IMG/VR virus record: IMGVR_UViG_3300032329_000227
Span: 1 to 35,098 of that record
DNA: 35,098 nt
DNA from: a virus
Lineage: Duplodnaviria; Caudoviricetes
Strand: one strand, 5' to 3'
Shown: positions 914 to 23,641 of the stretch, piece after piece
Position numbering within the stretch: the first letter of the stretch is position 1
Layout of the letters: the number at the start of each line of letters is the position of its first letter
Notes under the pieces: model-generated
Databases searched by the model: none
The model's input: only the letters and a program-made list of their open reading frames with translations
What the model was told of the DNA's origin: nothing
Translations under genes and position numbers: made by a program

Positions 914-3900
914 TTAAGTAATTAATGCTCCATCTCTTTGTACCGCTTGTATTATAACTTGATAATTTTGATAGTTATAAGGTGCAGTAGTAGTCATTTG
1001 TAAATTATCACCGCTCCATGATAATGATACAAGATAAACATCACCTCCAAATGTAGTATCTAAAGAAACAGATGAAACTTGTCTGCTACCATCTGCTGAC
1101 CAAAAAGCATAAGCAGTTTGAGCATTGCCAGTATTACCAACTGCACTAACAGATAAAATAGTTATTTTTAATAAAACTCTAGAATTACTTCCAGCAGAAT
1201 TAGCTACTGATGCAATTGTATGAGTAATATTTGATGTTTCTCTATTAAATTGCTTATTAAATATATTTGTTCCTCCTTCATTTCTAAATCCAGCACTACC
1301 AAAAACATCAAGTCTAAATGATGGATTACTTAAACCAAGTGCAATTCTGCCATTTCCTTTTATCATAAAATCACTCTCAGTTGTTCTTGCAGATATAGAG
1401 AAAAATCTATCTGCCTCTGCCAATGCTGGATAATATGATATTTTACCATCACTCAATGCATCATCACTAAATAATATTTGCGCTCTTTGATTATTAGATG
1501 CACCTCCACTAATTCTTAATTGAGGATTTGATGAATATGTTGTACCATTTTGTGCAGATATATGAACTTTACTACCTCCTAAAGGGGTTGCAGTTCCTAT
1601 ACCAATTGTACCATTTGCTAATAAACGCATTCTTTCAATAAATGAAATTGATGCACCAGCAATATTAGTAGCTGCATTTGCAAATATCATTACATCCTCA
1701 GCAAATTCAATTTTTGATGTACCACCATTATAAAGTCTTGAAATTGTACCAGAACCATTATCATAATAGTTAACTCCTACTGCAAAATTATTATTTGCAC
1801 CAGTCCAGTTTGATAATACACCACCAGTACCAACTTGTAAAGCTGCAATTGAACTTCCCCATCCGCTATTAGGTGCAACTTTAATACCAACTTGTCCGCC
1901 ATATTTTATAGTAATAGCGTTTGAATATGAACTGCCAGCACTTGTACCATAGCCAATACCTAAATCATTTGAACCAATTTTATAAAAGTTCCAATCGCCA
2001 TATCCACTCTCTGTATTATTAAAAATTAAATAATTGTAATCATTTGAATTTCCATTTTGTGCTGCAAATATTCCTTGTACTGCCGTTACACTACTTGAAA
2101 ACGTAGCACTTGTACCGCTTAAGCCACCATAAAAAGTAATATTAGCACCGCCACCTGCTCCGAAGTTTGCTACTTGAGTACTGCTATTAGCGTTAACGCT
2201 AAGTCCAGCACTTGTTGAAGCCTTAACTTGCGCCGCGCTTAATGTATAACTATTAAGCGTAACGTTACCCGTTGCACCGGTATAAGGTACATAAGTAGAC
2301 GCAGCCGTTGCCGTGCTTAACTTATTGTTAAAAGTATTCCAGTCTGTGCTAGATAATGCACCATTTGCTGATCCACTAGCAAGTCCTAAAGATAAAGCTT
2401 GTGTGCTTAAGCTTAAACCATTTGCAGTGCCTAAAGTAACTGCTGCATGTCTTGCGGCAGTATTAGCAGCCACATCACTATTTGCACTAACTCTTACATC
2501 TGTATAATATAAATTTGTGCCTTCTGTCACTTGCGTTGTTGTGTAGTCGCCACTTGCTGCAACAACTGCACCAGTGCGTCCAAACACTGAACTCACACCA
2601 GTAACTAATCCGTTCACGTTGCCGTTAAGCTTTTGAATTGCAGATAAGATTGTATCGCTTGAACTGATCGTGCCAGCACCGCTTGTATATCCAGTTAAAG
2701 TGCTAGCAATTGATCTTGCATTTGTAAAGTATAAATTCGTACCTTCTGCAATATTGCTAGTTGTTAAACTAACTGCGCCAGTCTCACCATTCACACTCAC
2801 AACCGCGTCTGTGTTATCAACTTGCTGCCATGCAGTGCCATCATAAATAATCCAGTCACCAACATTCCAATCTGTAATGCCGTCAATGTTTGTAGATCCA
2901 GCAACACTGACAATGTAGTAATTGCCTTTTGTACCTACACCGCTAGCTAAAGTAGGAGTGTTTGTGCTTGCATTCCAAATGCCTTTGTATATTGATCCGC
3001 CTATTAAACCATTTACTTGATTTTGTAATTTACCAAATGCAGTCAATATACTATCCGTGTCAGCAATGGTGCCTCCGGTAATATTCACACCGCTCAAAAT
3101 CTTGCCAGTCACCGCGCTATTTACAAGACTTGGATTTGCATAAGTACCACTCAACTCACCGCCAGCAGTGATGCCACTGATCGTTGTTAAATATGTGCTA
3201 TTGTCATAGCTTATTGTAGTGCCACTGATCTTGACAAATCCAGTGCCATTCAAAGCTGCTTGCTTGTTGTTAAAAGTATTCCAGTCTGTGCTAGATAAGT
3301 AACCATTTGCAGCACCACCAGCTTGACTAATACTTACCACGCCAGCACTTACACTAATAGGCAAAGTGCCGCTTATTGCCGCTTTTGCTCTTGCATCTGT
3401 GTAATATAAGTTTGTGCCTTCTGCTAGATCAGTTGTAGTCTTGCCACTAAATGCAGTGTTAAATCTTGCAGCAGTATAATAAAGATTTGTATTCTCTGGC
3501 ACCGCTAAAGTGTCCAAAGTTTGAAAGGTCTTGTCACCTCTGTAATATTGAGCCGTTGTGCCGCTTGCTAAAAAGTTTTCTTTATTGTTAAATGTATTCC
3601 AGTCTGTGTTTGTCAAATATCCATTTGCACTGGTTGTTGCAGCCGGCATACTTAAAGTCCTATCAGCGCTTAAATCACCGCCACCAGTTAAAGGTGCAGT
3701 TGTATTTATTGATCTAGATTGTGATGTATAAGTTGTTGAATCAACAGATCCATCCGCTTTTAAAAATTGTACAGATGTACCACCACTTTTCACAATTGTA
3801 TTACCAGTCACACTACTAGAAAAACTCGCACTGGTACCGCTTAAGCCGCCATACAAAGTCATGTTTGCACCGCCTCCGGCTCCTAAATTAGCTATTTGCG

Positions 3901-4408
3901 TACCACCATTGCTATTGATACTTAAACCAGCACTTGATGTTGCTTTAACTTGAGCGGTCAATAATTTGTGACTATTTAAATCAACATCACCAGTTGCGCC
4001 AGTGTAAGGCACTTTTGCATCTAGGCTAGCCTCTGTTGGTATAACATACCCACTAGCAAGACTAAAAATACCACTTGCACTATCGTAATTGATTCCGGTA
4101 ATATTCTCACTGATCGCCGTTCTTGATCTTGCATTTGTGTAATAAAGATTTGTGCCTTCTGTCAAATCTGTTGTAGTCTTATTACCAAAAGCAGTATTAA
4201 ATCTTGCTTGTGTATAATAAAGATTTGATCCTTCTGCAACTATGCTAGTTGTGTAGTCACCAGCTTGACCTACTACGTTGCCAACTCTACCAAATACGCT
4301 AAATACATTGCTAGGCAATGGATAAGCGCCAGTTTGTGTCACTATATTAACTACTGCCTCTGTGACATTTATTTCAATAATCTCGTCTGTTACGTTTATT
4401 ATTTCCAT
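914..4408 (-). CDS. Long tail fibre / receptor-binding protein
   Basis: 1164 aa, G/S/T/N-rich; six E(G/N)(T/S)NLY(Y/F)T repeats, three TDWNTFNNK, two SVFGRxG; distal ERMR...GTIGIGT fibre motif. Confidence 0.85.
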   Translation of the reverse strand: MEIINVTDEIIEINVTEAVVNIVTQTGAYPLPSNVFSVFGRVGNVVGQAGDYTTSIVAEGSNLYYTQARFNTAFGNKTTTDLTEGTNLYYTNARSRTAISENITGINYDSASGIFSLASGYVIPTEASLDAKVPYTGATGDVDLNSHKLLTAQVKATSSAGLSINSNGGTQIANLGAGGGANMTLYGGLSGTSASFSSSVTGNTIVKSGGTSVQFLKADGSVDSTTYTSQSRSINTTAPLTGGGDLSADRTLSMPAATTSANGYLTNTDWNTFNNKENFLASGTTAQYYRGDKTFQTLDTLAVPENTNLYYTAARFNTAFSGKTTTDLAEGTNLYYTDARAKAAISGTLPISVSAGVVSISQAGGAANGYLSSTDWNTFNNKQAALNGTGFVKISGTTISYDNSTYLTTISGITAGGELSGTYANPSLVNSAVTGKILSGVNITGGTIADTDSILTAFGKLQNQVNGLIGGSIYKGIWNASTNTPTLASGVGTKGNYYIVSVAGSTNIDGITDWNVGDWIIYDGTAWQQVDNTDAVVSVNGETGAVSLTTSNIAEGTNLYFTNARSIASTLTGYTSGAGTISSSDTILSAIQKLNGNVNGLVTGVSSVFGRTGAVVAASGDYTTTQVTEGTNLYYTDVRVSANSDVAANTAARHAAVTLGTANGLSLSTQALSLGLASGSANGALSSTDWNTFNNKLSTATAASTYVPYTGATGNVTLNSYTLSAAQVKASTSAGLSVNANSSTQVANFGAGGGANITFYGGLSGTSATFSSSVTAVQGIFAAQNGNSNDYNYLIFNNTESGYGDWNFYKIGSNDLGIGYGTSAGSSYSNAITIKYGGQVGIKVAPNSGWGSSIAALQVGTGGVLSNWTGANNNFAVGVNYYDNGSGTISRLYNGGTSKIEFAEDVMIFANAATNIAGASISFIERMRLLANGTIGIGTATPLGGSKVHISAQNGTTYSSNPQLRISGGASNNQRAQILFSDDALSDGKISYYPALAEADRFFSISARTTESDFMIKGNGRIALGLSNPSFRLDVFGSAGFRNEGGTNIFNKQFNRETSNITHTIASVANSAGSNSRVLLKITILSVSAVGNTGNAQTAYAFWSADGSRQVSSVSLDTTFGGDVYLVSLSWSGDNLQMTTTAPYNYQNYQVIIQAVQRDGALIT

Positions 4409-5855: not shown

Positions 5856-7832
5856 TTATTTTTTTCTAGTTACTATTTTAACTTGCCATCTATGTCTGCA
5901 ATATGGTCTATGGTTGCCATTCGGCTCTGTAAACCATCCGCCTCTTCTATCCCAAACAGAATAACCTAAACGCTCGCTGATATTCTCTATGTCTGCGCGG
6001 CTCCAAAGTTTAGTCTTAGCCAATTGCAACATTCTTGCACAAAATGGTCTATTTTTACTATCCTCTGGTCCAGAGTAAGTATATCTAAGCAACACCTCGG
6101 TCTTAGTAGTCTTGTCACCTCCAGCAATCTTGCTTAAAGGCTCAGTCAACTTTCTCACTACTGGCGTGTAATTAGGGACTAAAATACTTATTTCCATTCC
6201 AGTCTGGACTAAGTACCCCTCAAGCTTTAGCGCCTCAAGCGTTTGATCTATTTGCTCAACACTTTTATTTAAGACTTTAGCTAGCACCTCTGGTGTGATT
6301 CTTTTATCTTTACTGATCAAATCAAGCACATTTGCTTTAAGTACATTGATCTCTTCATCTGCAAATGCTTGATACCCTTTAGCGTCATGTGTTTCTACTA
6401 CCTCAAAATCTTCTACATTATCACCACATGCTGCAAACTCATTCACTAGCAAATCATCTTGCATAGATGCAAAAGCTTGCTCAGTTGAAGGATCATCATC
6501 AACACCTAAAAACGTGTCAACATCTGCATCTGTAAAACCAAAGCCACTCTTTAACATCAAGCTAGCTTGTGCCTTGTTGATCTTACCAGATCCGAATTGA
6601 CGCACGATGCGCATCACATTTTGGTGCTGGCGACCGCTTAAGTTAGTCAAAGTTGCGTTTGCTTGTACTGGTTGTGTAGTCACACCACTAGCATCTGTTA
6701 CAACCGAACTTTGTAATCCTAATTTCTCACGGATTTCATCTCTTGTCATATTAGCTGACATCACTGCCTCGCTAAATTCAAAGCTTAATGGCTCAACTGG
6801 TACGATCTTAAATTCGCCCTCTATGCCGGCTAAATTCATTAAAGTTGTGAATGTTTGCTCATGCTCTTGCTGGCGCTCATTTACATAAGTATTTTGAAAA
6901 ATCTGGTAAGCATCACGGATCTCGCTTCTGCCTCCTAATTGGCCCTCTGTCTTGATACCGAATAACATCGGACTTGTAACTTGATGACAAGAGAAAATCT
7001 CTTGCATAATCAAATTATTGACATTTGTGAAATCCTCTTTTGTCAAACTTGTCTCACCTAAGTTCACAATGTCGACTGAATTCTCTCTAGATGGATTAAA
7101 TGCAATCACCACACGATCTCCATCATGATTTGCAAACTTACTCTTTAAGTCTGTCTCAACTTGCTCTTGCTCTTCCTCTTGAGGTAATCCGTTATTGAAA
7201 TTAATCAATTTAGTTGCAACAAAGTTGTGCTTTGCATTGCCTAAAATGTGTCTGCTTACTTGGATGTCACTCTCTATATAGTTAAGACCTTGGAAATAAC
7301 TTGGCAAAGGATATACATCACTTTTAGGATTGTATTGCTTTACAAAGAATATTTGTGGCCCACTAGGATCGTTTGGATTAAATGCTGGATATTCTCTTGC
7401 TTTCTCTTTAAAGTCGCTAGCAGTCCAATCATTCTTTACATAGAATGTACTTAAGTCCTTGCTTGCTCTTACCTTTTGAAACTCAATGTGAAATACATCT
7501 TTGATCTTACCTAACTTGTTGTAGATAATTTGTAGGTAATATCCGCCTTGCAACTCATCATCTAAGATTGAGCGCTTCATTATTTGATTCCATGTTTCGC
7601 CTTGTGAATTAGCCTTTTGCTCAACGCCTTCAAAGCCTTTGCCAAATATGTAGTTGACTTTGCCTTTAATGATTGCTCCGTGCTTAGGTGACTCACCATA
7701 CAAATCAATCAAATAATTTGGATAATTATTCCTTGCACCAAACTCAACATAGTTTTTGCCTTTTTTCTCTTCAAATCTAGGCTGCTGCGCTTGATCAAAC
7801 TCGATTTTTATTAATTGATATTTATTGCTCAC
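5856..7832 (-). CDS. Portal protein with C-terminal wHTH and MuF-like Cys/His extension
   Basis: FG.RNNYPNYLIDLY..SPKH.AII..K and HQVTSPMLFGIK motifs typical of Bacteroidota phage portals; probable GTG start at 7832. Confidence 0.8.
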   Translation of the reverse strand: MSNKYQLIKIEFDQAQQPRFEEKKGKNYVEFGARNNYPNYLIDLYGESPKHGAIIKGKVNYIFGKGFEGVEQKANSQGETWNQIMKRSILDDELQGGYYLQIIYNKLGKIKDVFHIEFQKVRASKDLSTFYVKNDWTASDFKEKAREYPAFNPNDPSGPQIFFVKQYNPKSDVYPLPSYFQGLNYIESDIQVSRHILGNAKHNFVATKLINFNNGLPQEEEQEQVETDLKSKFANHDGDRVVIAFNPSRENSVDIVNLGETSLTKEDFTNVNNLIMQEIFSCHQVTSPMLFGIKTEGQLGGRSEIRDAYQIFQNTYVNERQQEHEQTFTTLMNLAGIEGEFKIVPVEPLSFEFSEAVMSANMTRDEIREKLGLQSSVVTDASGVTTQPVQANATLTNLSGRQHQNVMRIVRQFGSGKINKAQASLMLKSGFGFTDADVDTFLGVDDDPSTEQAFASMQDDLLVNEFAACGDNVEDFEVVETHDAKGYQAFADEEINVLKANVLDLISKDKRITPEVLAKVLNKSVEQIDQTLEALKLEGYLVQTGMEISILVPNYTPVVRKLTEPLSKIAGGDKTTKTEVLLRYTYSGPEDSKNRPFCARMLQLAKTKLWSRADIENISERLGYSVWDRRGGWFTEPNGNHRPYCRHRWQVKIVTRKK

Positions 7833-8196
7833 TTGTATAAGTTTTAAATTCGTTATCTTGCTCGTTGTACTCTGGTTGAGGACAATCGGTTTCGTCATGT
7901 AAATACATAAATCCTTCCTCTACTATCGCACCGCTCAAACTCTCTTTAGTATTAGTTGCGCTTGCTTGCTCTCTTATCTTATACCTCCAAGTGCCACTCT
8001 CTTTGCAATCAAACACAGAATTTAAAACAAGTACCTTTTGGTATCTTGCATCTGTGCTTATGTTTGTCCCTACAAATGTAACACAATTTTCTGTTGCACT
8101 TGTGAAAATAAACAAGTATTTCGGGTTTGAAATTGTTGCCAATTCTAAGCCAGTGAATATCAAATTATTGTCAATGCCTTTGTATATGTGTAACAT
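7822..8196 (-). CDS. Virion-module hypothetical protein
   Basis: Start MLHIYKG at 8196 lies downstream of a terminator; beta-rich; between putative tail tube and portal. Confidence 0.55.
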   Translation of the reverse strand: MLHIYKGIDNNLIFTGLELATISNPKYLFIFTSATENCVTFVGTNISTDARYQKVLVLNSVFDCKESGTWRYKIREQASATNTKESLSGAIVEEGFMYLHDETDCPQPEYNEQDNEFKTYTSEQ

Positions 8197-10402: not shown

Positions 10403-10439
10403 ACTTTATATATATTATTTAATTGATAAAGGTACTTTT
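10403..10439 (-). promoter_or_regulatory. Candidate late promoter AAAAGTACC-N14-AATATAT
   Basis: Same motif, spacing and 28-nt distance to ATG as at 11444-11480. Confidence 0.55.
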
Positions 10440-11443
10440 AGTAACTCTGCCAGTTCTGCAAGCTTTTGTTCTGCATAGGTTGGTGCCTTTTTTTCTACTG
10501 GATATTCAAAAAATCCTTCAACAGAAAATCCTTTTACTTTGCCCTCTTTAATAAGCTGCCATGCTTGCTCATTTTCAACATAAAAGCTACCAAACCAACT
10601 ACCATCTTTTGCATCTTCAAATCCCTTCATAGGTAATATCCCACGCTCTTTGTCAACTAAAAATGACTCAAACATGATCAAACCATCTAAAGTCATAGAC
10701 TTATCATGCATTAAATTAACCTTGTCTTGATATCCTTTTTTGCTAAATTTGATTGCAATGTCTTTGATTGTATCTGCTGGGAATGTTACAAAATGCTCAC
10801 CAAATTTGCTATTGTTGCGATATATAGGCTTATCTGCTAACATGATCGGCCCAGATATAATATGCTTATCTTCGCTTTGAATAGCAAACATTAAATAGCT
10901 GAACTTTGAGCCAATTGGGCCAAGTTCATCAATTACATCTGCATTGTTATCTACATGTTTTGTAATGCCTAATTCTTTAATTTTTTCTACTTTTGCTTTA
11001 TTTGATCCAGTTGCATAAACTCTGCTTTCTGGTATTCCAAGATCAGCAGCTACTGCAAGCATGCCATCTTTATCTTGTCTTGCTGATATGATATAAAGCG
11101 TATTTCCAGCCTCAATCGCATTTTTAGCCATTTCTTTTCCACGATCTGTACTTAATGTATCATCATAGTCAAAAGATACTTTAGGTGCTGCAAAATGCTG
11201 ATCCCAGATTGAATTGCAAATAGCCACGGCTTGCTCGCTTTCTTTACCTTCATCAATTACATATTTAATGCAACGAGGTAAAAATGCATCTTGTCCTTCA
11301 CCTTTAGATGGCTCAATAAAATCTTGTTTAAACGCTACAAAGTCACGTTGGATTGCTGGCTTATCAACAAGTGCAATAAATGATACCTCAGCATCATCTT
11401 GTAGATCCTCTTGTATTCTTAATTCGTATATAGGTAAGTTCAT
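10415..11443 (-). CDS. XkdF-like prohead protease with inserted HAD-like domain
   Basis: IALVDKPAI, NLMH, GSWF and GKVKGFSVEG protease motifs; internal FDYDDTL...ISAR...K...HVDNN HAD motifs. Confidence 0.75.
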   Translation of the reverse strand: MNLPIYELRIQEDLQDDAEVSFIALVDKPAIQRDFVAFKQDFIEPSKGEGQDAFLPRCIKYVIDEGKESEQAVAICNSIWDQHFAAPKVSFDYDDTLSTDRGKEMAKNAIEAGNTLYIISARQDKDGMLAVAADLGIPESRVYATGSNKAKVEKIKELGITKHVDNNADVIDELGPIGSKFSYLMFAIQSEDKHIISGPIMLADKPIYRNNSKFGEHFVTFPADTIKDIAIKFSKKGYQDKVNLMHDKSMTLDGLIMFESFLVDKERGILPMKGFEDAKDGSWFGSFYVENEQAWQLIKEGKVKGFSVEGFFEYPVEKKAPTYAEQKLAELAELLKVPLSIK

Positions 11444-11480
11444 ACTTAATAAATATTTTTAATTCCATTTAGGTACTTTT
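11444..11480 (-). promoter_or_regulatory. Candidate late promoter AAAAGTACC-N14-AATATTT
   Basis: Repeated motif upstream of protease, scaffold and tail chaperone genes. Confidence 0.55.
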
Positions 11481-13065
11481 AGCTGATCCTAGCGGCTCTG
11501 TTTAATCTTATGATCCTTTCTTGATTTCCACTTATATCACTTTCAACAACGTATGCTCTTGCGGCCACATTCCCTATTTGATTAACTTGCGCTTGATTTA
11601 AAGTTGTAGCTTGGAATGATGGAGAAAGCGGAGCAATAGCGCCAACGCTTGGAATTGATGGCCTTGACATCGTAGGCATTACTGGACTAGGTACGCTTGC
11701 AACTTTACTACTTAATAATCTTTTAGCATTTGCAATGTTAGCAGTAATTCTTACCATACCAGATAAAAACTGCGTTAATCCGGCACTACCAAAAGTCCAA
11801 GCATTTAAAGGATTTTGCTCACTATTTTTTACTAAGGCAGAAATTGCTTGTGCAGTATCAATACCAATTTGAGCTAAAGCAAGACCTTTACTTATTGCTG
11901 AACTGGCACCAGCTATTTCATTAAGATTTCCAAGAATATTGATGACTGCATTTGCATTGCTAATTTTATTTTGAGTGACTGCATCATCTGCTGCTTTCTT
12001 TTTAATAGCTGCCTCTTCATCAATTTGGATTAATCTTTGCTGCAATTGAGTGTCAAAATCTTCATAAGCTTTAGCATCTGCTTTTGCTTTTTCAAGTCTT
12101 GCAGCTTCTTTTGCGTCTTTCTCTTCTTGTATTTCTAAAAGTCTTTGCTGGACTTGTAAATCAAAATCTTCAATTTCTTTTCTTTCTTTGGCTTGTCTTT
12201 CTTTTTCTGCTTTCTCAGCTTCAATCTTTTTTTCTAAAGCAGCTTTTCTTTCTGCTTCTGCTTTTTCATTTGCTGCTTTTTGATCAGCTAATCTTTTAGC
12301 TTGCTCTGCTTTTTCTGTATCTGTTAATTCTTTACTACCAGCAATAAATCTTTTATTTGCAGCCTCGTATCTTGTGCCGAATTCTGTGACAGACTTTTTA
12401 GCATCATCCCACGCACCACTAAAGTCACCACTTATAAACTTTTTGACTGCTGATCCTACAAGGCCCAAACCTTGCAAGAATGAACTCATAGCAGAATAAG
12501 CAACTTTAAAAGCATTTGTCACATAAGGCATTGCTTTAGTTGCTAGATCAATTGTGGCATCTATTAAAGGCTCCATTGCGCCTAAAATACCATTTAAGAT
12601 CCTACCGAATTGAATCATGATAGGCTCAAGCTTTTTCATTGCGCCTTCATTCTTTGCAAACGCAGCAGCAAGTCCAGCTACTAAACTAACTAGCAAGCCA
12701 ATACCAGTTGCTTTAAGCGCAGCACTAAAAGATGTTGTTGCAACCTTTGCTCTATTAAGCGCACCTCCAAGCATACCTAGTGGGCCGCCAGCACTCTCTA
12801 AAGTATCGATCCAGTCGCTAGACGCTTTCTTTGATCCTTTAATTTTATCCTCTAAATCATCAATCTGGTTGTATAATTTTTGAAATTCCTCGGAGCCAGC
12901 AGCCGTATTTTTTAACTGCTTTTTTAATTCTTTAAGCTGGGCAATACTGCCTTCTGTGGCATTGCCAATACCTTGTATGCCATCTTTTAAATCTTTGACC
13001 TCTTTCTCTGCACTACCGGTGTCGACTTTAATCTCGGCTGCAATTGTTGTTTTTTTACTTGCCAT
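11479..13065 (-). CDS. Short tape measure protein
   Basis: 528 aa, helical and Ala/Lys/Glu-rich; ALKATGIGLLV segment; C-terminal RAYVVESDI motif. Confidence 0.65.
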   Translation of the reverse strand: MASKKTTIAAEIKVDTGSAEKEVKDLKDGIQGIGNATEGSIAQLKELKKQLKNTAAGSEEFQKLYNQIDDLEDKIKGSKKASSDWIDTLESAGGPLGMLGGALNRAKVATTSFSAALKATGIGLLVSLVAGLAAAFAKNEGAMKKLEPIMIQFGRILNGILGAMEPLIDATIDLATKAMPYVTNAFKVAYSAMSSFLQGLGLVGSAVKKFISGDFSGAWDDAKKSVTEFGTRYEAANKRFIAGSKELTDTEKAEQAKRLADQKAANEKAEAERKAALEKKIEAEKAEKERQAKERKEIEDFDLQVQQRLLEIQEEKDAKEAARLEKAKADAKAYEDFDTQLQQRLIQIDEEAAIKKKAADDAVTQNKISNANAVINILGNLNEIAGASSAISKGLALAQIGIDTAQAISALVKNSEQNPLNAWTFGSAGLTQFLSGMVRITANIANAKRLLSSKVASVPSPVMPTMSRPSIPSVGAIAPLSPSFQATTLNQAQVNQIGNVAARAYVVESDISGNQERIIRLNRAARIS

Positions 13066-13071
13066 GCTTTA

Positions 13072-14043
13072 TTATTTTAAACAAGTGTTTTGTGCAACTT
13101 GTCTTATTATGTTAGTATAATTAAATGATCCAAAGGTCTCATTGTATTCTGTATTCATGACATCTTCATAAGGCAATTTGTCTGTATAAGCACCTTTGTA
13201 GAATATATTATGATTTTTACCAATATCGTAAGTGACACCAGAATTGTGAAAAATATCGCACTTGCTCCATTTTTCTATTGGATCAGTACCCCAGCAAAAA
13301 TCAAGCCTATCTGTGATTTTTACATTAAGATCATGATACCAGCAATTCCAAAGCATACCCCACATGCCGGCAGTGAACTGCTGGATGCCGTAATAACTTG
13401 GATTCTTTTGCACTCTTAATGGCTCACTCTTTTGGAAATAATCAAATAGTGCTACACTATCACTCTCAACTTTTTGCCAGAATTTATAGTCAGTATTTTT
13501 AAAAATGTACTGAGATCCGCCGCTATGCAATCTGTGCTTTATTGGTACGCTATAATCTAAGCCTACAATGTCGCACATGTCCTCATATAAATCTTGTCCT
13601 TTCTCTAGTATGTAATCGCTCCAGATAAAGCTTTTTGAGTCACTAACATAGCAGCTATCGTCTTGCTCAAGATCAGTAAAATCTACCGGCTTTGTGAATA
13701 TCATATCGCAGTCATGTAAAAATACATTTTCCATCTGCAAATAAGGATAAGCTTGATAGTGATGCTTGACTGCATTCATGATCACACTAGGAATATAAGT
13801 AGGCATGACACGAGTGTCTTTATACTCAAAAAAAGCTATTGTGTTAAATTTCTCTTTTAACCTATCAAACATAGCAATTGTCTCTGGCCAGTTAGTCTTA
13901 TCATTTGGATCTTTACTAACTGATAATAAGACATGGATCTTATCATCTGGTATGCCCACCGACTTAAAGTTGGTGAGCATTACCTCTAAATGCCATGCGT
14001 AATAAATAATCCTAGGTTGTGTGCAAATATATATCATATTCAT
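13072..14043 (-). CDS. GT-A fold glycosyltransferase resembling HPAT/SRGT1 (GT95/GT96) peptide O-glycosyltransferases
   Basis: YYAWHLEVMLTNF, YIPSV...VKHH, FLHDCDMIF (DxD), GGSQY and FTAGMW parallel recalled SRGT1/HPAT motifs YFDWQ..., YPAINKP, ILDADMI and W.SEMY. Confidence 0.6.
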   Translation of the reverse strand: MNMIYICTQPRIIYYAWHLEVMLTNFKSVGIPDDKIHVLLSVSKDPNDKTNWPETIAMFDRLKEKFNTIAFFEYKDTRVMPTYIPSVIMNAVKHHYQAYPYLQMENVFLHDCDMIFTKPVDFTDLEQDDSCYVSDSKSFIWSDYILEKGQDLYEDMCDIVGLDYSVPIKHRLHSGGSQYIFKNTDYKFWQKVESDSVALFDYFQKSEPLRVQKNPSYYGIQQFTAGMWGMLWNCWYHDLNVKITDRLDFCWGTDPIEKWSKCDIFHNSGVTYDIGKNHNIFYKGAYTDKLPYEDVMNTEYNETFGSFNYTNIIRQVAQNTCLK

Positions 14044-14046
14044 TTT

Positions 14047-17000
14047 TTAAAGTTGGCATACATCTGTACAATCCGATCCACTCTTTGCTGATTCTGTATC
14101 TATGTCAAATGTGTAAGATGATCCGCTTGTTGTGCCATTTGTTAAGTAAACATATCCGTCTACAAAGTTAAAGAATAAAGCATTTAAAGCGTTACTTGAT
14201 GACCTAGCAATTGCAACACTTGATCCACTTAAAGAACACGGATCACATGAATATCTATCTAAAATATAGTAGGTATAAGGATCTGCCGTTGTTGTAGTTG
14301 TTGTTGTACTTGTTGTTGTTGTAGGTGCTAAAGTAGTTGTTGTAGTTGTTGTAGTTTGTACGCAACTTGAGTCAGCACATTCTAAAACCGCCGTGTACAA
14401 TGTTATGTTTGTTGGCAATTCAACTGGACCATTATAACTTGTTAAAGTATAACATTGACTGACACCACTAGCTGCACTTGTGTAAGTTTCACCAACACTC
14501 TTGCTAGTTGAGACAATCAATGTACTTGTTGCACCATCACTACATCTTGTTGCCTCATAGCTATAATTAGGAGCCGGAGTTGTTGTAGTAGTAGTTGTAC
14601 TTGTTGTTGTAGTTGTAGCCTCAGTTGTAGTAGTAGTTGTAGTACTAGTTGTTGTTGTAGGTGCAGCAGTTGTAGTAGTAGTTGTAGTACTAGTTGTTGT
14701 TGTAGGTGCAGCAGTTGTAGTAGTAGTTGTTGTACTAGTTGTTGTTGTAGTAGTTGTAACATCCGGACAAGTTTGACATGTCTCTTCTGCCCAAACTGCC
14801 ACAAATTGACCGCCTTCAATAATAATAGTAAATTGTCTGCTTGTACCGCTACATGCACTTATCCAAAAATTACCGCTTATAGTTCCATCGGCAATTGATG
14901 CACTTGTTAATTTAGTAGCAGTACAAAGCGCACCGCCACCAGCTAAAATAGTAAATGTTTCAACTGGACGCGCTGGATTTGGACATACTACATTACAAAC
15001 ATCGTAAGCACTCACCATGCTATATGATGCATTAAAAGTAGCTAGAGTAGTAGTAGTTGTTGTTGTACTAGTTGTTGTAGTAGTTGTTGTTGTTGTAGGA
15101 ACTATGTCTGTACCTACTGCATCAATCACTCTTAATAAGTCAACCTTTGTAGTATCATAAGTTTCTGGACTATAATCATAAACTTTTATAAGTCTATAAA
15201 GTCCGCCATCAATAAAATAATACTTTGCAAAGTCTAAGTTAAAAATGTCTAACTCACTTAAATGAAAAAAGCCAGTAAGTAAACGGCTGTCTTTATCTGT
15301 AATCTCTGCCATATATGGCGAGTAATAAACATTGAATAAGTTATAACTTAAATCACCACTTGTTAAATTAAAAAACAATTGTTGAGGCGCTCCAAAGTTA
15401 ATATCAATATTTGGCGTTGTTGGATTGTTTATATGCCCACAAAATAAATACGCAGTGTTTGATCCTAAGTTAGTCGCTCCATTTAAAATGCTCCAACTTG
15501 CAACGCCGGTAATTTTGTTTATTTGCATAATACGCATAACATGATCAATAGGATCCTCTTTAGTATTATTGTCCGACTTTTTGTAAATTGCTGGAAATAC
15601 TTTATCTGTTGTACTTGTACCAAACAAAGGTGAAGGTGCAAAAATTATTTCAACGCTTTCAGTATCTTTTGCAAATTCAAGGCCATTATCATAAATCCGA
15701 TCACCATATCCCTCATTAAATTTCTTGCGATAGTCCTCATTGTAAAAATCATTATCTTGTTTATATTTAAAATTGTAGTATCTAGCATTGACCTCACTCA
15801 TTGGTTTGATCTTAATTGCTTTGCTATGATCTATCTTATCACTCCAATCAACAATCGTACCAGTATAAAAGTCAACATAAGGCTTGATCACTAAATGGTT
15901 TGTTTTGTATTTATCTTCAACAATCATCAAGTTGTACATCTTCATTATAGATGTTACAAAGTCTTTTTGAAATATACCTTTTGGGATTGTATTATTGATC
16001 ACCATAGTATCACCTAATTCAATCGGAGCCGTTGTTGCTACATTGTTAATTACATTAATTGTACTTTCCGAAACGTAAACAGAATCACCAATATCAAGTA
16101 TGCATGTTGTTCTTACTCTTAATGTATCATTTGTTGCAAGTGTTACATTTAATGTTTTATTGTAGTATAAATTGTCAGTGCCATTATATGTTTGACTTGA
16201 TCCAGATATAACAGATCCGTTTTTTAAAACTGATATTGTCAAAGTTCTAGCAGCTAGAGTATAATCACCAAAAAGTTCGATTGTTAAATTTGTAGTAAGT
16301 GTAGGTGTGCCATTGTAAGTGAATGTAGTATCGCCAACACTTGCGCTGAATAATGATCCTACTTTAGTCTCATAGCTAACAAAATCTTGAGTGCCACCAG
16401 TATTCATTGCTTGCCCTATTGATTTTGTTAAAGCAAGTACATCACTTGTTTCTTTTGTTAACTGCTTAGCATTGTTAGGTATAATTAATTTTCTAAAATC
16501 GCTAGTGTTAAATAAGTCGCATTCATAAGTGTAACCGCTACCAGTGAAAATCTTATCTAGATATTCACGCACAAATAATGCTGGCTTAAATGTTTTATAT
16601 TGGAAATTTATCTTGTCAGTACTTACATTTCCATAGTCAATTAAAGGATAGCAATAACTAGTGCTGCCAGTAGTATTCCAGCTTGCCACAATATTTGCAT
16701 AAGAGTATGTGTGATTGTATGCACTAAAGTCTAAGTCCTCAAGTCTTTTATTGCCTAGCGCGTTAATAAATCCGCCTAATTCACCAAACAATGCGCACTC
16801 GTACTCTATGTGTCCGTCAACATGTATGATCTCAAGCAAACGCAAAACACCTTTCATGATCTGCAATCCGTCAATCTCTATGCGTGAAGATGCACTACGC
16901 GCTGCGTTAAAGTTTGCCAGCACGTTTGGATCAATAGGATTATCAAAGTTTGCATTGTTAAAATCAAAAATATTGCCTAGCAATTTATTGTTGTTAGCAG

Positions 17001-17139
17001 TGCCGGGCAATATTATTGTTTTTGTAAAGCTGGTGCTTTTACTATCTAAGTTTTGTAGATCATCAATGGCATAAGTAATTTGATTACTTAAGCCTTGTGT
17101 CAAATCAAGTTCATATCCTTCAATAAATAATCTAGTCAT
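14047..17139 (-). CDS. Tail/baseplate protein with C-terminal mucin-like Thr-rich stalks and Cys-rich modules
   Basis: N-terminal ~680 aa tail-like (SFTKTI.LPGT.NN..L, YPLIDYG, KMYNL, DWSDK, ending TKVDLLRV), then three poly-Thr tracts and three Cys modules. Confidence 0.75.
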   Translation of the reverse strand: MTRLFIEGYELDLTQGLSNQITYAIDDLQNLDSKSTSFTKTIILPGTANNNKLLGNIFDFNNANFDNPIDPNVLANFNAARSASSRIEIDGLQIMKGVLRLLEIIHVDGHIEYECALFGELGGFINALGNKRLEDLDFSAYNHTYSYANIVASWNTTGSTSYCYPLIDYGNVSTDKINFQYKTFKPALFVREYLDKIFTGSGYTYECDLFNTSDFRKLIIPNNAKQLTKETSDVLALTKSIGQAMNTGGTQDFVSYETKVGSLFSASVGDTTFTYNGTPTLTTNLTIELFGDYTLAARTLTISVLKNGSVISGSSQTYNGTDNLYYNKTLNVTLATNDTLRVRTTCILDIGDSVYVSESTINVINNVATTAPIELGDTMVINNTIPKGIFQKDFVTSIMKMYNLMIVEDKYKTNHLVIKPYVDFYTGTIVDWSDKIDHSKAIKIKPMSEVNARYYNFKYKQDNDFYNEDYRKKFNEGYGDRIYDNGLEFAKDTESVEIIFAPSPLFGTSTTDKVFPAIYKKSDNNTKEDPIDHVMRIMQINKITGVASWSILNGATNLGSNTAYLFCGHINNPTTPNIDINFGAPQQLFFNLTSGDLSYNLFNVYYSPYMAEITDKDSRLLTGFFHLSELDIFNLDFAKYYFIDGGLYRLIKVYDYSPETYDTTKVDLLRVIDAVGTDIVPTTTTTTTTTSTTTTTTTLATFNASYSMVSAYDVCNVVCPNPARPVETFTILAGGGALCTATKLTSASIADGTISGNFWISACSGTSRQFTIIIEGGQFVAVWAEETCQTCPDVTTTTTTTSTTTTTTTAAPTTTTSTTTTTTTAAPTTTTSTTTTTTTEATTTTTSTTTTTTTPAPNYSYEATRCSDGATSTLIVSTSKSVGETYTSAASGVSQCYTLTSYNGPVELPTNITLYTAVLECADSSCVQTTTTTTTTLAPTTTTSTTTTTTTADPYTYYILDRYSCDPCSLSGSSVAIARSSSNALNALFFNFVDGYVYLTNGTTSGSSYTFDIDTESAKSGSDCTDVCQL
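14575..14758 (-). repeat. Thr-codon tandem repeat containing near-identical 45-bp units (STTTTTTTAAPTTTT)
   Basis: gtactagttgttgttgtaggtgcagcagttgtagtagtagttgt repeated in tandem from ~14642; related tracts at 14285-14356 and 15046-15096. Confidence 0.9.
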
Positions 17140-20848: not shown

Positions 20849-21266
20849 ACTTGATTGTGATTGTTTCTATGTTTGTATTTTCAGTAGTCGCGCGATCAGT
20901 CATGCCAAGTGCATTCTTTGCATAGAAAATTGCTTTGCCTTCATTTGCAACAATATCGATAGCCAATGACTTAAACATAAACACAATCCTATTAGCCACC
21001 TCATGATAGGGATGAGTAGGATCTTGTCTTATTTTCCAAAGGCCCATTCTTGTGTAAAATTCAAAGTCATGCTTTCTTAACCAATGATCTAAGAAATAGT
21101 CAATCGTTGGCACAAAGCGATCTCTAATCTCAACGATCTTGCCCGATCCAGTTGCAACTTGCTTTTGGCCCTCCATACAATTGTCGCAATATGCAAAGGC
21201 TAACTCCATCAATTTCTCTTCATCTATGTCCTTAAACTTTCTTGTCACGCTTTCTCTTATTTCCAT
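20838..21266 (-). CDS. terS: Terminase small subunit
   Basis: 142 aa overlapping terL start; PTI..F...AIFYAKN.LG..D pattern. Confidence 0.65.
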   Translation of the reverse strand: MEIRESVTRKFKDIDEEKLMELAFAYCDNCMEGQKQVATGSGKIVEIRDRFVPTIDYFLDHWLRKHDFEFYTRMGLWKIRQDPTHPYHEVANRIVFMFKSLAIDIVANEGKAIFYAKNALGMTDRATTENTNIETITIKYES

Positions 21267-21856
21267 AATTTAATATTTTTAGTGCCATCACGATAGCCTT
21301 TTATGTCAGCTTCATGTTTGGCCCAGTTCTTTTGCAATAATTCGGTCTTGTTATACCCATACTCGTCACCGCTTGCATGTGATCCAATATGCTCTGCCAA
21401 GCAGTCCATCACATAGTAGGTATTAAATCCAGCTATGTTGGCCCTCTCACAATAGTCCAGATCAATCGGTCCATAAGGAAACATGGACTCATTAAAGATC
21501 CCAATCTTGTCAACTACCTTCATACTAAGTAGCCAGTTGCTTATGATATGCTCGCTCTTTATTCCTCGTCTTGATCTATCCAAACTGCTGGCAACAATGC
21601 CGGCATCTGGGTAAGTCTGCAATGCCTCAACCTTTTTAGCAAGCCAATTGTCTGGCTCAATGATGTCATTTGCTAGATAAGCGATTGCATCATATTCATC
21701 TACACCAGCTATGTCAATAGCTTCATTCATTGCGTTTGCTATGCCTTCTTTGTTAACATTAATAAAATCAAATGGATAACCGGATTTACCCATGTTTAAT
21801 GCTATTTGATATAATGGCCTATCGCCATAAGTCAATCCAGCTATAAGTACTCTCAT
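21257..21856 (-). CDS. GT2-like glycosyltransferase
   Basis: GIANAMN.AI, YLANDI, IG.FNE...YG..DLDYC.R...G motifs of GT-A/GT2. Confidence 0.7.
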   Translation of the reverse strand: MRVLIAGLTYGDRPLYQIALNMGKSGYPFDFINVNKEGIANAMNEAIDIAGVDEYDAIAYLANDIIEPDNWLAKKVEALQTYPDAGIVASSLDRSRRGIKSEHIISNWLLSMKVVDKIGIFNESMFPYGPIDLDYCERANIAGFNTYYVMDCLAEHIGSHASGDEYGYNKTELLQKNWAKHEADIKGYRDGTKNIKLWK

Positions 21857-22342
21857 TTAAAATATGTTTTTGCCTATTTCTTTTGCTGGATTGCCAGCGT
21901 ACTTTGTTGCATGTGTAGTATAAAGCTTGCGCGTCACAACTGCACCCATACCGATCATGCATCCTTTTGCAATCACTTGCTTTTGATGGATCACTGCATT
22001 AAGTCCAATGTTGCAGCCATCACCAACAATAGTATGGCCACCGATCTTTGCACCGCAACTGATCGTTACATTGTTACCGATAACGCAGTCATGACCTACA
22101 TGTGAATGCTTAAGCATCCATACACCAGCACCGATTATTGTCTTGTCAATTGTGCCGGCATCAATAGTCACATGACCAGTGATCACGCAGTCATCACCTA
22201 TAACAACTTCGCCGATCGGTGCATTCCAGAAAAGCTTATGCTCTGCTGGCTCACCGATCACACAATATGGCCCAATGTAAACATTGTTACCTAGTGTGAC
22301 ATTTGGCCCTACAATGGCCGTCTTATGAATGAATGTACTCAT
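21857..22342 (-). CDS. Left-handed beta-helix (hexapeptide) sugar acyltransferase, LpxA/PglD-like
   Basis: IHKTAIV start, hexapeptide repeats, HVGHDC catalytic His motif, C-terminal GNPAK. Confidence 0.85.
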   Translation of the reverse strand: MSTFIHKTAIVGPNVTLGNNVYIGPYCVIGEPAEHKLFWNAPIGEVVIGDDCVITGHVTIDAGTIDKTIIGAGVWMLKHSHVGHDCVIGNNVTISCGAKIGGHTIVGDGCNIGLNAVIHQKQVIAKGCMIGMGAVVTRKLYTTHATKYAGNPAKEIGKNIF

Positions 22343-22553
22343 TGAATGTTTTATATACGTTAACTAAAAATGATCCAACGCATGCACCACATCTACTATT
22401 GTATGTGTAGTGTGGATCTTTTATGCGCATAATTTCTACCAGTTCATTTTGGATCTCATGTGTAAATCCTACCAATTCACCAGTTGCCTTAAATAGATCA
22501 TAGAAATGCTTATGCTTTAACAAGGTCTGCAAATGCCTTTCGTCTAGTTTCAT
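22323..22553 (-). CDS. Small hypothetical protein with CxxC
   Basis: Start MKLDERH at 22553; ends RCGACV; fills the gap in a tightly packed operon. Confidence 0.55.
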   Translation of the reverse strand: MKLDERHLQTLLKHKHFYDLFKATGELVGFTHEIQNELVEIMRIKDPHYTYNSRCGACVGSFLVNVYKTFNEYIHS

Positions 22554-23517
22554 TAATTCGCTCATGATTGTATTTGTTTTTTGCCCACTCAAAAAGATCA
22601 TTGCCCATCTTGATCCTTTCATCTGGGTTGTTTACTAAGTATGTCAAATGCTTAAACCAGTCAGCTTGATTCTTTACAAATAGCACTGGTGCATCTTTAT
22701 CTAGGTTATATGGCTCGACATCGCTCACTATCACTGCCACTCTTTTAGCTGCCGCCTCAAGTAGCTTTAAATTGCTTTTGCTCGCATGCCATGGTGACTC
22801 TTGCAAAGGCACAACCATAATGTCTGCATGTTTAAAATGCTCCATGTAATTGCTTGGCAATTCGCTTGCAAGTTTTCTATTAGCTAACTTTCCGCCATTC
22901 GTAAACATTGAGTGTACCTTATCCCAGTATGATTTGCTCACTGGATCTGTGTCAGTATATCCGCCCAGCACCATCTCAATGCTTGATAATCCGCTTAATC
23001 TTTTAAAAGGATTTGCCAACAACTTGATGTCCTCAAGATGTGTTGATCCGCCGGCCCAGAAGATACGCGTCTTGTCGCTTTCATATTTTGAATCATCATA
23101 TTGATGCTCACCATATGGTATGCAGTTTGGTAACACTAATACTTTCTTGTTGTACTTGCTCACCTTGTCAGCGATCCTATCATTTGTGCATGTCACAAGA
23201 TCAGCATTAAAGATGTTGTTAATGATACGCTTTTTGTGTGCCTCATAACCATGATACAAAGGATGATTGTATGGCAATTCCCAGTCATCATCCAGATCCA
23301 TCACTACTTTAAAGTGCTGCTTTGTTTCATCCCAGTCTGTATCAAATTGACTAAATCTATTGTACAATAAAATATCAAATTGCCTCTCTTCAAGTATTTC
23401 TTTAGTAGGCATATTGCACACATGGTTGTAAGAATCCGGCAAGAATGCCAAAGGCAGCATGACTCTATGCCATCCGCAACCGCTCATCTTTTGTGTGATC
23501 CCCAGCACTTGTATCAT
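22510..23517 (-). CDS. GT4-like (GT-B) glycosyltransferase
   Basis: SGCGWHRV..P, DLDD, WAGG.TH..D, KSNLKLLEAA and SDV.PY motifs; start MIQVLG at 23517. Confidence 0.8.
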   Translation of the reverse strand: MIQVLGITQKMSGCGWHRVMLPLAFLPDSYNHVCNMPTKEILEERQFDILLYNRFSQFDTDWDETKQHFKVVMDLDDDWELPYNHPLYHGYEAHKKRIINNIFNADLVTCTNDRIADKVSKYNKKVLVLPNCIPYGEHQYDDSKYESDKTRIFWAGGSTHLEDIKLLANPFKRLSGLSSIEMVLGGYTDTDPVSKSYWDKVHSMFTNGGKLANRKLASELPSNYMEHFKHADIMVVPLQESPWHASKSNLKLLEAAAKRVAVIVSDVEPYNLDKDAPVLFVKNQADWFKHLTYLVNNPDERIKMGNDLFEWAKNKYNHERINETRRKAFADLVKA

Positions 23518-23518
23518 C

Positions 23519-23641
23519 TTAGCGTCCTTGTCCACGATATTGTTTGGGTTTAGGTGAGTGCTTATTAAAACTTTTCTTTGCTGATCCTTGCTTGCGCTTG
23601 CCAAAGGTAACTTTTCGCGCGTCACTTGTTTGCTTTGCCAT
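23519..23641 (-). CDS. 40-aa highly basic peptide ending YRGQGR (not in ORF track)
   Basis: MAKQTSDARKVTFGKRKQGSAKKSFNKHSPKPKQYRGQGR; start overlaps the upstream TAA, and its stop lies 1 nt before the GT4 ATG. Confidence 0.7.
   Translation of the reverse strand: MAKQTSDARKVTFGKRKQGSAKKSFNKHSPKPKQYRGQGR

Follow-up and report, generated by a model that had tools for sequence, protein, structure and literature searches.

The window analysed here, meaning the whole stretch of 35,098 nucleotides (nt), is the complete virus record IMGVR_UViG_3300032329_000227, whose first 20 bases are identical to its last 20. On the minus strand, a gene for a likely tail-tip protein ends in an arm of three threonine (Thr) tracts alternating with three cysteine (Cys)-bearing modules, and is followed by a gene for a predicted glycosyltransferase and then by the tape measure gene. 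Here we describe the arm and the enzyme, how the two are distributed across phage and bacterial genomes, and what they may do together.

The threonine arm and the enzyme encoded behind it

A sequence-only reading of this region had proposed that the tail protein continues for some 350 residues past an apparent natural end at the motif TKVDLLRV. This proved correct, as the motif occupies residues 664–671, 359 residues lie beyond it, and 55 relatives that lack the enzyme stop 5–6 residues past it. The tight packing described for the three genes was also confirmed, with 3 nt between the tail stop and the enzyme start and 6 nt between the enzyme stop and the tape measure start. The number of stalks and the count of 6, 4 and 4 Cys in the modules between and after them stand. 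The description of the stalks as Thr/Ser/Pro does not: of the 100 residues in the three tracts (residues 682–698, 795–854 and 929–951), 83 are Thr and 6 are Ser, and the tracts are near-pure poly-Thr with sparse Ala, Pro and Ser, and are not Ser/Pro-rich. Runs of at least seven Thr occur nine times in the tail protein and any such run appeared in only 2 of 2000 shuffles; the 23 other minus-strand open reading frames (ORFs) of the window reach at most five Thr in 12 residues. Thr in the tracts is encoded by ACA 46 times and by ACT 36 times, a mix similar to that in the core of the protein (33 and 28), which indicates a Thr run at the protein level rather than a pure microsatellite and led us to reject microsatellite slippage as the origin of the tracts. 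Misassembly of the region was rejected as well: the contigs of a public run that may be the source sample agree with it, covering it at an even depth of 8–9 with no differences listed and breaking only at the Thr repeats.

The Cys modules behave as a shuffled library: those of 24 close proteins fall into 12 families, always with an even Cys count, and the 62 homologues compared show 17 different architectures. An even number of Cys was also present in 70 of the 76 Cys-bearing inter-tract modules of distant loci, and since module counts are mostly even, the sequences support the presence of disulfides. No Pfam family matched the modules. In the model of the full-length tail protein the C1q-like domain dominated both fold searches and module 3 had a predicted local distance difference test (pLDDT) score below 50, and hence we assign no fold to them. 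The adhesin role that had been suggested for the modules is a guess, as none has a family name; it is consistent with their variability, and it lost ground with the finding of Cys arms that occur without Thr or a glycosyltransferase.

The enzyme matches the phrog_4417 profile over its full length (residues 3–316; E = 1.7e-53), a family without assigned function that appears in annotations as 'prophage pi2 protein 34'. Pfam, NCBIfam and PDB sequence searches gave it no name, and a TAL-repeat match in the PDB sequence search was rejected as a repeat artefact. An AlphaFold model built from 75 homologues (pLDDT 97.5) was matched by VIA to LgtC (Z 14.6, root-mean-square deviation (rmsd) 3.5, 234 residues aligned), glycogenin (Z 14.4), Gat1 and UGGT (both Z 14.0), and to the capsid glycosyltransferase of PBCV-1 (2p6w; Z 11.5). 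Foldseek returned the LgtC/glycogenin/Gat1/UGGT group at E of about 1e-6. These GT-A matches span the whole chain, and the Rossmann-like fold, a DxD motif after a core strand, a G-loop and a C-terminal His are all found in the model. The enzyme is therefore likely to be a GT-A-fold protein and is a predicted glycosyltransferase, in agreement with the fold assigned to it from sequence. By their position in the predicted structure, HDCD (residues 110–113), GGSQ (175–178), QQFTAGMW (221–228) and HNSG (266–269) would correspond to the DxD, G-loop, xED-helix and C-His of the motif scheme set out in PMC7185993. D111, D113, G176, Q178, M227 and W228 are invariant in the 75 homologues and H266 is present in at least 90% of them. 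The fold starts at residue 3, with no signal or membrane anchor.

The family comprises 576 clusters at 50% identity (E up to 1e-10), and a search with a single motif returned about 1600 motif-bearing viral stretches in 2.9 million contigs, which is an underestimate. Longer homologues, of which 40 were scanned, are fused to GT2, GT6, GT7C, GT25, GT32-type or GT61 domains. In P0055 and P0359 an enzyme of the phage type is fused to a radical SAM/SPASM domain.

Table 1. Features of the tail gene, the enzyme gene and the flanking tape measure gene (positions in the window)
Feature	Position	Strand	Remarks
Whole tail gene	14047-17139	-	1030 residues
Conserved core, residues 1-676, likely tail-tip/hub protein	15112..17139	-	viral Atlas clusters; position before tape measure; cassette-less relatives end here
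C1q/TNF-like jelly-roll inserted in core, residues 228-370, candidate binding domain	16030..16458	-	Foldseek, VIA
Poly-Thr tract 1, predicted acceptor	15046..15096	-	17 residues, 16 Thr
Cys module 1	14761..15045	-	~95 residues, 6 Cys; predicted beta-rich; first module in most relatives
Poly-Thr tract 2, predicted acceptor	14578..14757	-	60 residues, 48 Thr; 45-nt unit x4.1
Cys module 2	14356..14577	-	~74 residues, 4 Cys; swappable
Poly-Thr tract 3, predicted acceptor	14287..14355	-	23 residues, 19 Thr
Terminal Cys module 3 and stop codon	14047..14286	-	~79 residues, 4 Cys; swappable; poorly modelled
GT-A glycosyltransferase-like gene, phrog_4417 family	13072..14043	-	323 residues; profile match, predicted fold, motifs
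Enzyme motif sites	DxD 13705-13713; GGSQ 13510-13521; AGMW 13360-13371; HNSG 13237-13248	-	
Tape measure, flanking gene	11479..13065	-	phrog_1538, E 4e-4

Distribution of the enzyme and poly-threonine

A scan with the tail core kept 79 loci, the best 80 of 271 matches having been considered, and 77 of them are informative, as two end inside the core. Nineteen carry both a Thr arm and the enzyme, 58 carry neither and none is discordant, and in the 19 paired loci the enzyme lies 7–11 nt behind the arm. Three of the 58 enzyme-less loci (L052, L059 and L060; core 77–81% identical) keep a Cys-rich arm of 495–648 residues with no Thr tract, which indicates that the enzyme tracks Thr and not the modules; in L052 the tape measure gene follows the tail gene directly, with no enzyme between them. 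The arms at L052:10001-13501 and L060:7809-11804 consist of tandem Cys-rich repeats with 30–42 Cys, and no glycosyltransferase accompanies them. The loci are not independent; on a quick tree of 45 selected cores, the arm/enzyme state changes five times, at least four of these changes being forced by strong branches, and L015, with both elements, and L052, with its Cys arm and no enzyme, are sister cores at 100%. In L016, L017 and L025 the cassette sits on cores that are 47–57% identical, with enzymes that are 83–93% identical. Genome-wide, all five complete relatives lacked the enzyme and any run of six Thr, with L007 serving as the positive control. Among these relatives, enzyme and Thr tracts have been gained and lost jointly.

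The pairing extends well beyond the relatives of this tail gene. At distant viral loci, an ORF with a Thr tract was found in the flank in 68 of 79 cases and within 400 nt in 56 of 79. Cultured-phage records carrying the enzyme family number 77, and in the seven that were examined, one per main group and mostly from phages of Firmicutes, a Thr tract was present every time in the frame immediately upstream of the enzyme gene. The protein carrying it is the major tail protein in Enterococcus phiFL1A, Staphylococcus PMBT8 and Clostridium phiCTP1, a small protein annotated as tail in Lactobacillus iLp84 and Iacchus, a 428-residue protein in Chryseobacterium MA9V-3 and an unannotated short frame in VPE25; several cultured carriers also Thr-tag the major head protein, the portal or the head protease. 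In Lactobacillus phages iLp84 and PLE3 it is a Thr-tagged gp8 that directly precedes the enzyme. In Enterococcus phage VPE25 the short frame (L041:8462-8617) overlaps the gene before it at that gene's end, and it may extend that gene by a frameshift. Bacterial genomes contributed 80 loci; 26 of these (nearly all Bacillota) have a WTAEMW variant of the enzyme, and tracts are present in 25 of the 26. The strongest reason to see poly-Thr as the substrate is that the enzyme is paired with partner proteins unrelated to one another. The cassette and the co-occurrence foreseen in the sequence-only reading thus hold across phage genomes, and the system is much wider than one tail appendage.

A chromosomal branch of the family, set off as one side of a branch at 95%, occurs in Bacteroidota of the genera Chitinophaga, Pedobacter, Sphingobacterium and Mucilaginibacter. 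There the domain is mostly part of a longer protein, with a second glycosyltransferase (GT) domain where Pfam names one, and a long Thr tract is rare (2 of 37). Peptidase-type ABC exporters adjoin 20 of the 37 chromosomal members, and the neighbours also include radical SAM/SPASM genes, grasp-with-spasm or LanM-like genes and double-glycine precursors. Precursor-like ORFs were found at 17 of 37 fused loci, but at none of the 26 WTAEMW loci and in none of the 40 control windows, which were drawn from four of the fused-locus genomes. Many of the precursor cores begin with a Thr/Ser-rich stretch that is followed by a Cys-rich body, which is the anatomy of the phage arm in miniature, and in L208 (Niabella) and L254 (Sphingobacterium) the precursor lies directly before the enzyme. 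As judged from these gene neighbourhoods, the chromosomal branch points to peptide acceptors, and the peptide acceptor that had been proposed for the phage enzyme gains support from it. Candidate O-glycosylated RiPPs (peptides that are made on the ribosome and modified after translation) with TIGR04149-like precursors lie at L205:5994-12421, L208:9636-11155, L254:9615-11578 and L233:6108-11530, and in L191, L192, L198 and L213.

The Gly in FTAGMW, where an acidic residue had been expected, was earlier taken to cast doubt on activity. Across the enzyme family, position 226 is D, E or G, and in a FastTree tree of 68 hand-picked rows a branch with support 92 separates the 17 rows with Gly from the rest; identity within this clade goes down to about 40%, and its Thr partners are kept. 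A comparison of the enzyme with 14 close relatives gave ratios of nonsynonymous to synonymous substitution rates (dN/dS) of 0.02–0.045 in 13 pairs, the remaining pair being saturated, with all four motifs intact, and it is therefore unlikely that the enzyme gene of the window is dead. Because Gly marks a wide clade under strong purifying selection, we consider the doubt weak; it is possible that the Gly clade uses a changed donor.

A predicted virion glycosylation system and its rivals

Taken together, the gene pairing and the predicted fold make it probable that the enzyme acts late and in the cytoplasm as a retaining O-glycosyltransferase whose substrates are poly-Thr tags on virion proteins. 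Because Thr runs and enzyme appear and disappear together, the phage is likely to coat its own particle with sugar. The DxD, the G-loop, the C-terminal His and the lack of an xED base suggest a metal-dependent and probably retaining transferase, which would be made together with its substrate, given the 3-nt gap between the genes, and would draw on a host nucleotide sugar in the cytoplasm. Sugar would be added to the arm threonines during late infection, yielding virions with glycosylated tail arms. The dense O-glycans may stiffen the linkers, shield them from proteases and aggregation, and so keep the variable modules at a distance from the tail tip; the module Cys would pair after lysis, and the DNA repeats of the tracts probably also act as crossover points for module swapping. 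In unrelated phages poly-Thr would serve as a portable tag on tail tip, tail tube, major capsid, portal or protease genes. We lean, with considerable reserve, towards the broader proposal that this unnamed family is a general peptide O-glycosylation device addressed by poly-Thr, which in phages of Bacteroidota and Firmicutes could tag any virion protein and here would build mucin-like arms with shuffled disulfide modules, and that in chromosomal Bacteroidota it serves to produce O-glycosylated RiPPs of a class not yet described, which combine a Thr stalk with a Cys-rich body.

Several observations weigh against glycosylation of poly-Thr by this enzyme. Position 226, which is acidic in the other clades, is Gly here, and a PDB sequence search found no solved structure for any member of the family. 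The fold similarity is at the level of a family of folds (8–12% identity) and names neither donor nor acceptor. No tract accompanies the enzyme at 11 of the 79 distant loci, three of which have less than 60 nt upstream, and the complete phage L030 (69 kb) lacks any run of six Thr, yet encodes an enzyme that looks intact. In the reverse search, which used a nine-Thr codon run and covered 80 viral loci with flanks out of 125 returned, the enzyme lay within the flank of only 7 of the 56 loci that had the run in an ORF (7 of 30 for ORFs of at least 300 residues). This is far above the rough background given by the underestimated count of motif-bearing stretches; most viral poly-Thr nevertheless has no need of this enzyme or uses another. 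At L030:9587-10936 the enzyme is N-terminally extended, and the gene upstream of it encodes a fibre-like protein of 572 residues that is diffusely Thr/Gly-rich.

Glycosylation of the arm leaves room for different purposes, and the sequence-only reading had suggested that the glycan itself is the host-recognition bait, presented to the SusCD system of a Bacteroidota host. This purpose, which is compatible with the enzyme acting on poly-Thr, fits the position of the arm on a likely tail-tip protein and the probable host: the nearest relatives of the capsid and portal proteins are those of Nonlabens phage P12024 (28–29% identity) and the primase matches include Cellulophaga phages, so that, from these sequence similarities, a Bacteroidota host is likely. 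We nonetheless consider it unlikely as the general purpose. The tail core also occurs in close relatives that have no such enzyme, and the protein module is variable while the enzyme is highly conserved. The bait cannot be general, because in phages of Firmicutes the system is applied to capsids and tail tubes. Firmicutes are not known to have SusCD.

Another chemistry is unlikely, although co-occurrence proves partnership and not chemistry. The enzyme might modify Thr with a group other than a simple sugar, such as a sugar-phosphate or another nucleotide-activated group, or be a non-catalytic factor for poly-Thr binding or assembly, and the Gly clade, which has lost the acid at 226, may consist of pseudo-enzymes. 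GT-A folds include the Stealth phosphotransferases, which appear in the lower VIA rows (Z of about 10), and Stealth_CR2 was touched by 2 of 75 family members (E 0.019). However, the best fold matches are all retaining glycosyltransferases, and the fusions to other GT domains suggest chain building. The Gly clade keeps the DxD, GGxQ and HNxG motifs, and Taujale et al. (PMC7185993) describe an xED base that varies among retaining GT-A enzymes and is dispensable for them.

That the tracts are plain flexible linkers or recombination junctions, with an enzyme that glycosylates the host surface, DNA or another protein and hitch-hikes with the gene end, is very improbable: the repetitive DNA of the tracts, the 17 module architectures, the many viral poly-Thr proteins without the enzyme and the tract-less L030 speak for it, but it fails to explain the non-homologous partners (tail tip, tail tube, major capsid, portal and small unannotated frames) in phages of both Bacteroidota and Firmicutes, and in L052, L059 and L060 the Cys arms vary in the absence of Thr.

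Known systems and other features of the genome

Phage virions are usually regarded as free of glycans, and the documented exception is the mycobacteriophages (PMC11256854, PMC12619734). In phage Che8, virion O-glycosylation is assigned to gp108–110, and glycans are reported to sit on the C-termini of the capsid and tail tube proteins (Freeman et al. 2023, as described in PMC11256854 and PMC12619734). As in Che8, the glycosyltransferases considered here are phage-encoded, and the Thr tags of the Firmicutes partners occupy the same C-terminal positions as far as these accounts describe them. In contrast to Che8, in which the enzymes are encoded far from the structural genes, a single enzyme here directly follows its tagged partner; the profile of the present family scores gp108–110 at 1.3 bits or less, which gives no sign of homology, and the last 45 residues of the Che8 capsid and tail tube proteins contain no poly-Thr. 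Virion protein glycosylation is unmentioned in the available parts of the papers on the carriers VPE25 (PMC4999554) and the Iacchus/Dionysus group (PMC6669764), the latter of which reports proteomics of Dionysus that found only four virion proteins.

With the GT8, GT24 and GT6 enzymes (LgtC, glycogenin, Gat1, UGGT and GlyE) and the PBCV-1 protein 2p6w, the enzyme shares a whole-chain GT-A fold (Z 11.5–14.6), a DxD and a C-terminal His; it differs from them in its 8–12% identity and in the lack of a Pfam GT8, GT24 or GT6 match for the domain. Pfam Glyco_transf_8 matched neither the window enzyme nor its homologues, though GT8 members are the nearest solved folds. Several enzymes of the GT8/GT24/GT6 type extend existing glycans, unlike the window enzyme, which we infer to initiate on Thr. 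The plant enzymes HPAT (GT95) and SERGT1 (GT96) are retaining transferases that start glycosylation at hydroxyl residues of repetitive peptides, and kinship with them had been put forward from parallel motifs. Such kinship is possible and stands as a lead. A neighbouring Atlas cluster (score 0.96, 56% viral) carries the HPAT family PF23452 on 10% of its members and is the lead to remote homology; searches with PF23452 in the window genome and in 401 genomes of the phylum of a Bacteroidota host gave no match, nor did the control. At the protein level, PF23452 gave no match in the window enzyme and touched 1 of 75 homologues (E 0.027) and 0 of 45 more diverse members, none reaching the cut-off, and the Foldseek and VIA lists contain no GT95/96 entry. 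Unlike HPAT and SERGT1, the enzyme has neither signal nor membrane anchor, and its partner is poly-Thr on virion proteins and not hydroxyproline (Hyp) or Ser-Hyp.

Glycocin enzymes are GT2-type, and the domain studied here has no GT2 match. The chromosomal branch of the family resembles glycocins in lying in comparable clusters, and differs from them in its Bacteroidota precursors with a Thr-rich stretch followed by a Cys-rich body. The characterised glycocins are found in Bacillota, where a dedicated enzyme glycosylates Ser, Thr or Cys of a ribosomal peptide encoded nearby (PMC9576775). In the literature searched we found no paper on poly-Thr virion tags with this enzyme or on the RiPP branch, and subscription papers or supplements may hold one. 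Should the proposal be right, virion glycosylation would be common and predictable from sequence, as an enzyme with a Thr tag, and could be tested in cultured phages; dairy, gut and staphylococcal phages in culture would be among the users of poly-Thr tagging. The family would then be new at the CAZy level, being soluble, cytoplasmic and initiating a mucin-type modification on a short portable tag, and it would be useful for glycoprotein work in bacteria. For environmental, dairy and therapeutic phages, the matter bears on the stability of the particles, their adsorption and their antigenicity.

The tail or tail-tip label for the 1030-residue protein is likely and is drawn from position and fold rather than from a family match. 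The core had no match among cultured phages, and a weak Atlas lead (0.81) connects it to prophage tail proteins. The jelly-roll inserted in it (Foldseek E 2.4e-7; VIA Z 13.4, rmsd 3.2, 127 residues aligned) also resembles a portal-tail chain of cyanophage A4 (VIA Z 13.2), is the most variable part of the core alignment and is a candidate receptor-binding domain. Profile searches place terminase, portal, head protease, capsid-like and tape measure genes on the minus strand of the window. Upstream of the terminase, a second glycosylation block at 21257-23625 (-) contains GT2-like, hexapeptide acetyltransferase and GT4-like (phrog_7162) genes; it was rejected as part of the cassette, since all three genes, which occur in relatives with the Thr cassette, are also present in the enzyme-less L052, L059, L060, L075 and L091. 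The gene at 914-4408 (-) encodes a tail-fibre-like protein of 1164 residues with a repeated 'EGTNLYYT'-type motif and Thr/Gly/Ser-rich segments, in which no poly-Thr tract was found (at most five Thr in 12 residues). The portal gene at 5856-7898 (-) has a long C-terminal extension with, on weak matches, a winged-helix-like stretch and a Cys/His-bearing end. The head maturation protease at 10415-11443 (-), XkdF-like in its C-terminal part, carries an inserted segment with a DxDDT motif near residue 92, which may be a haloacid dehalogenase (HAD)-type phosphatase.

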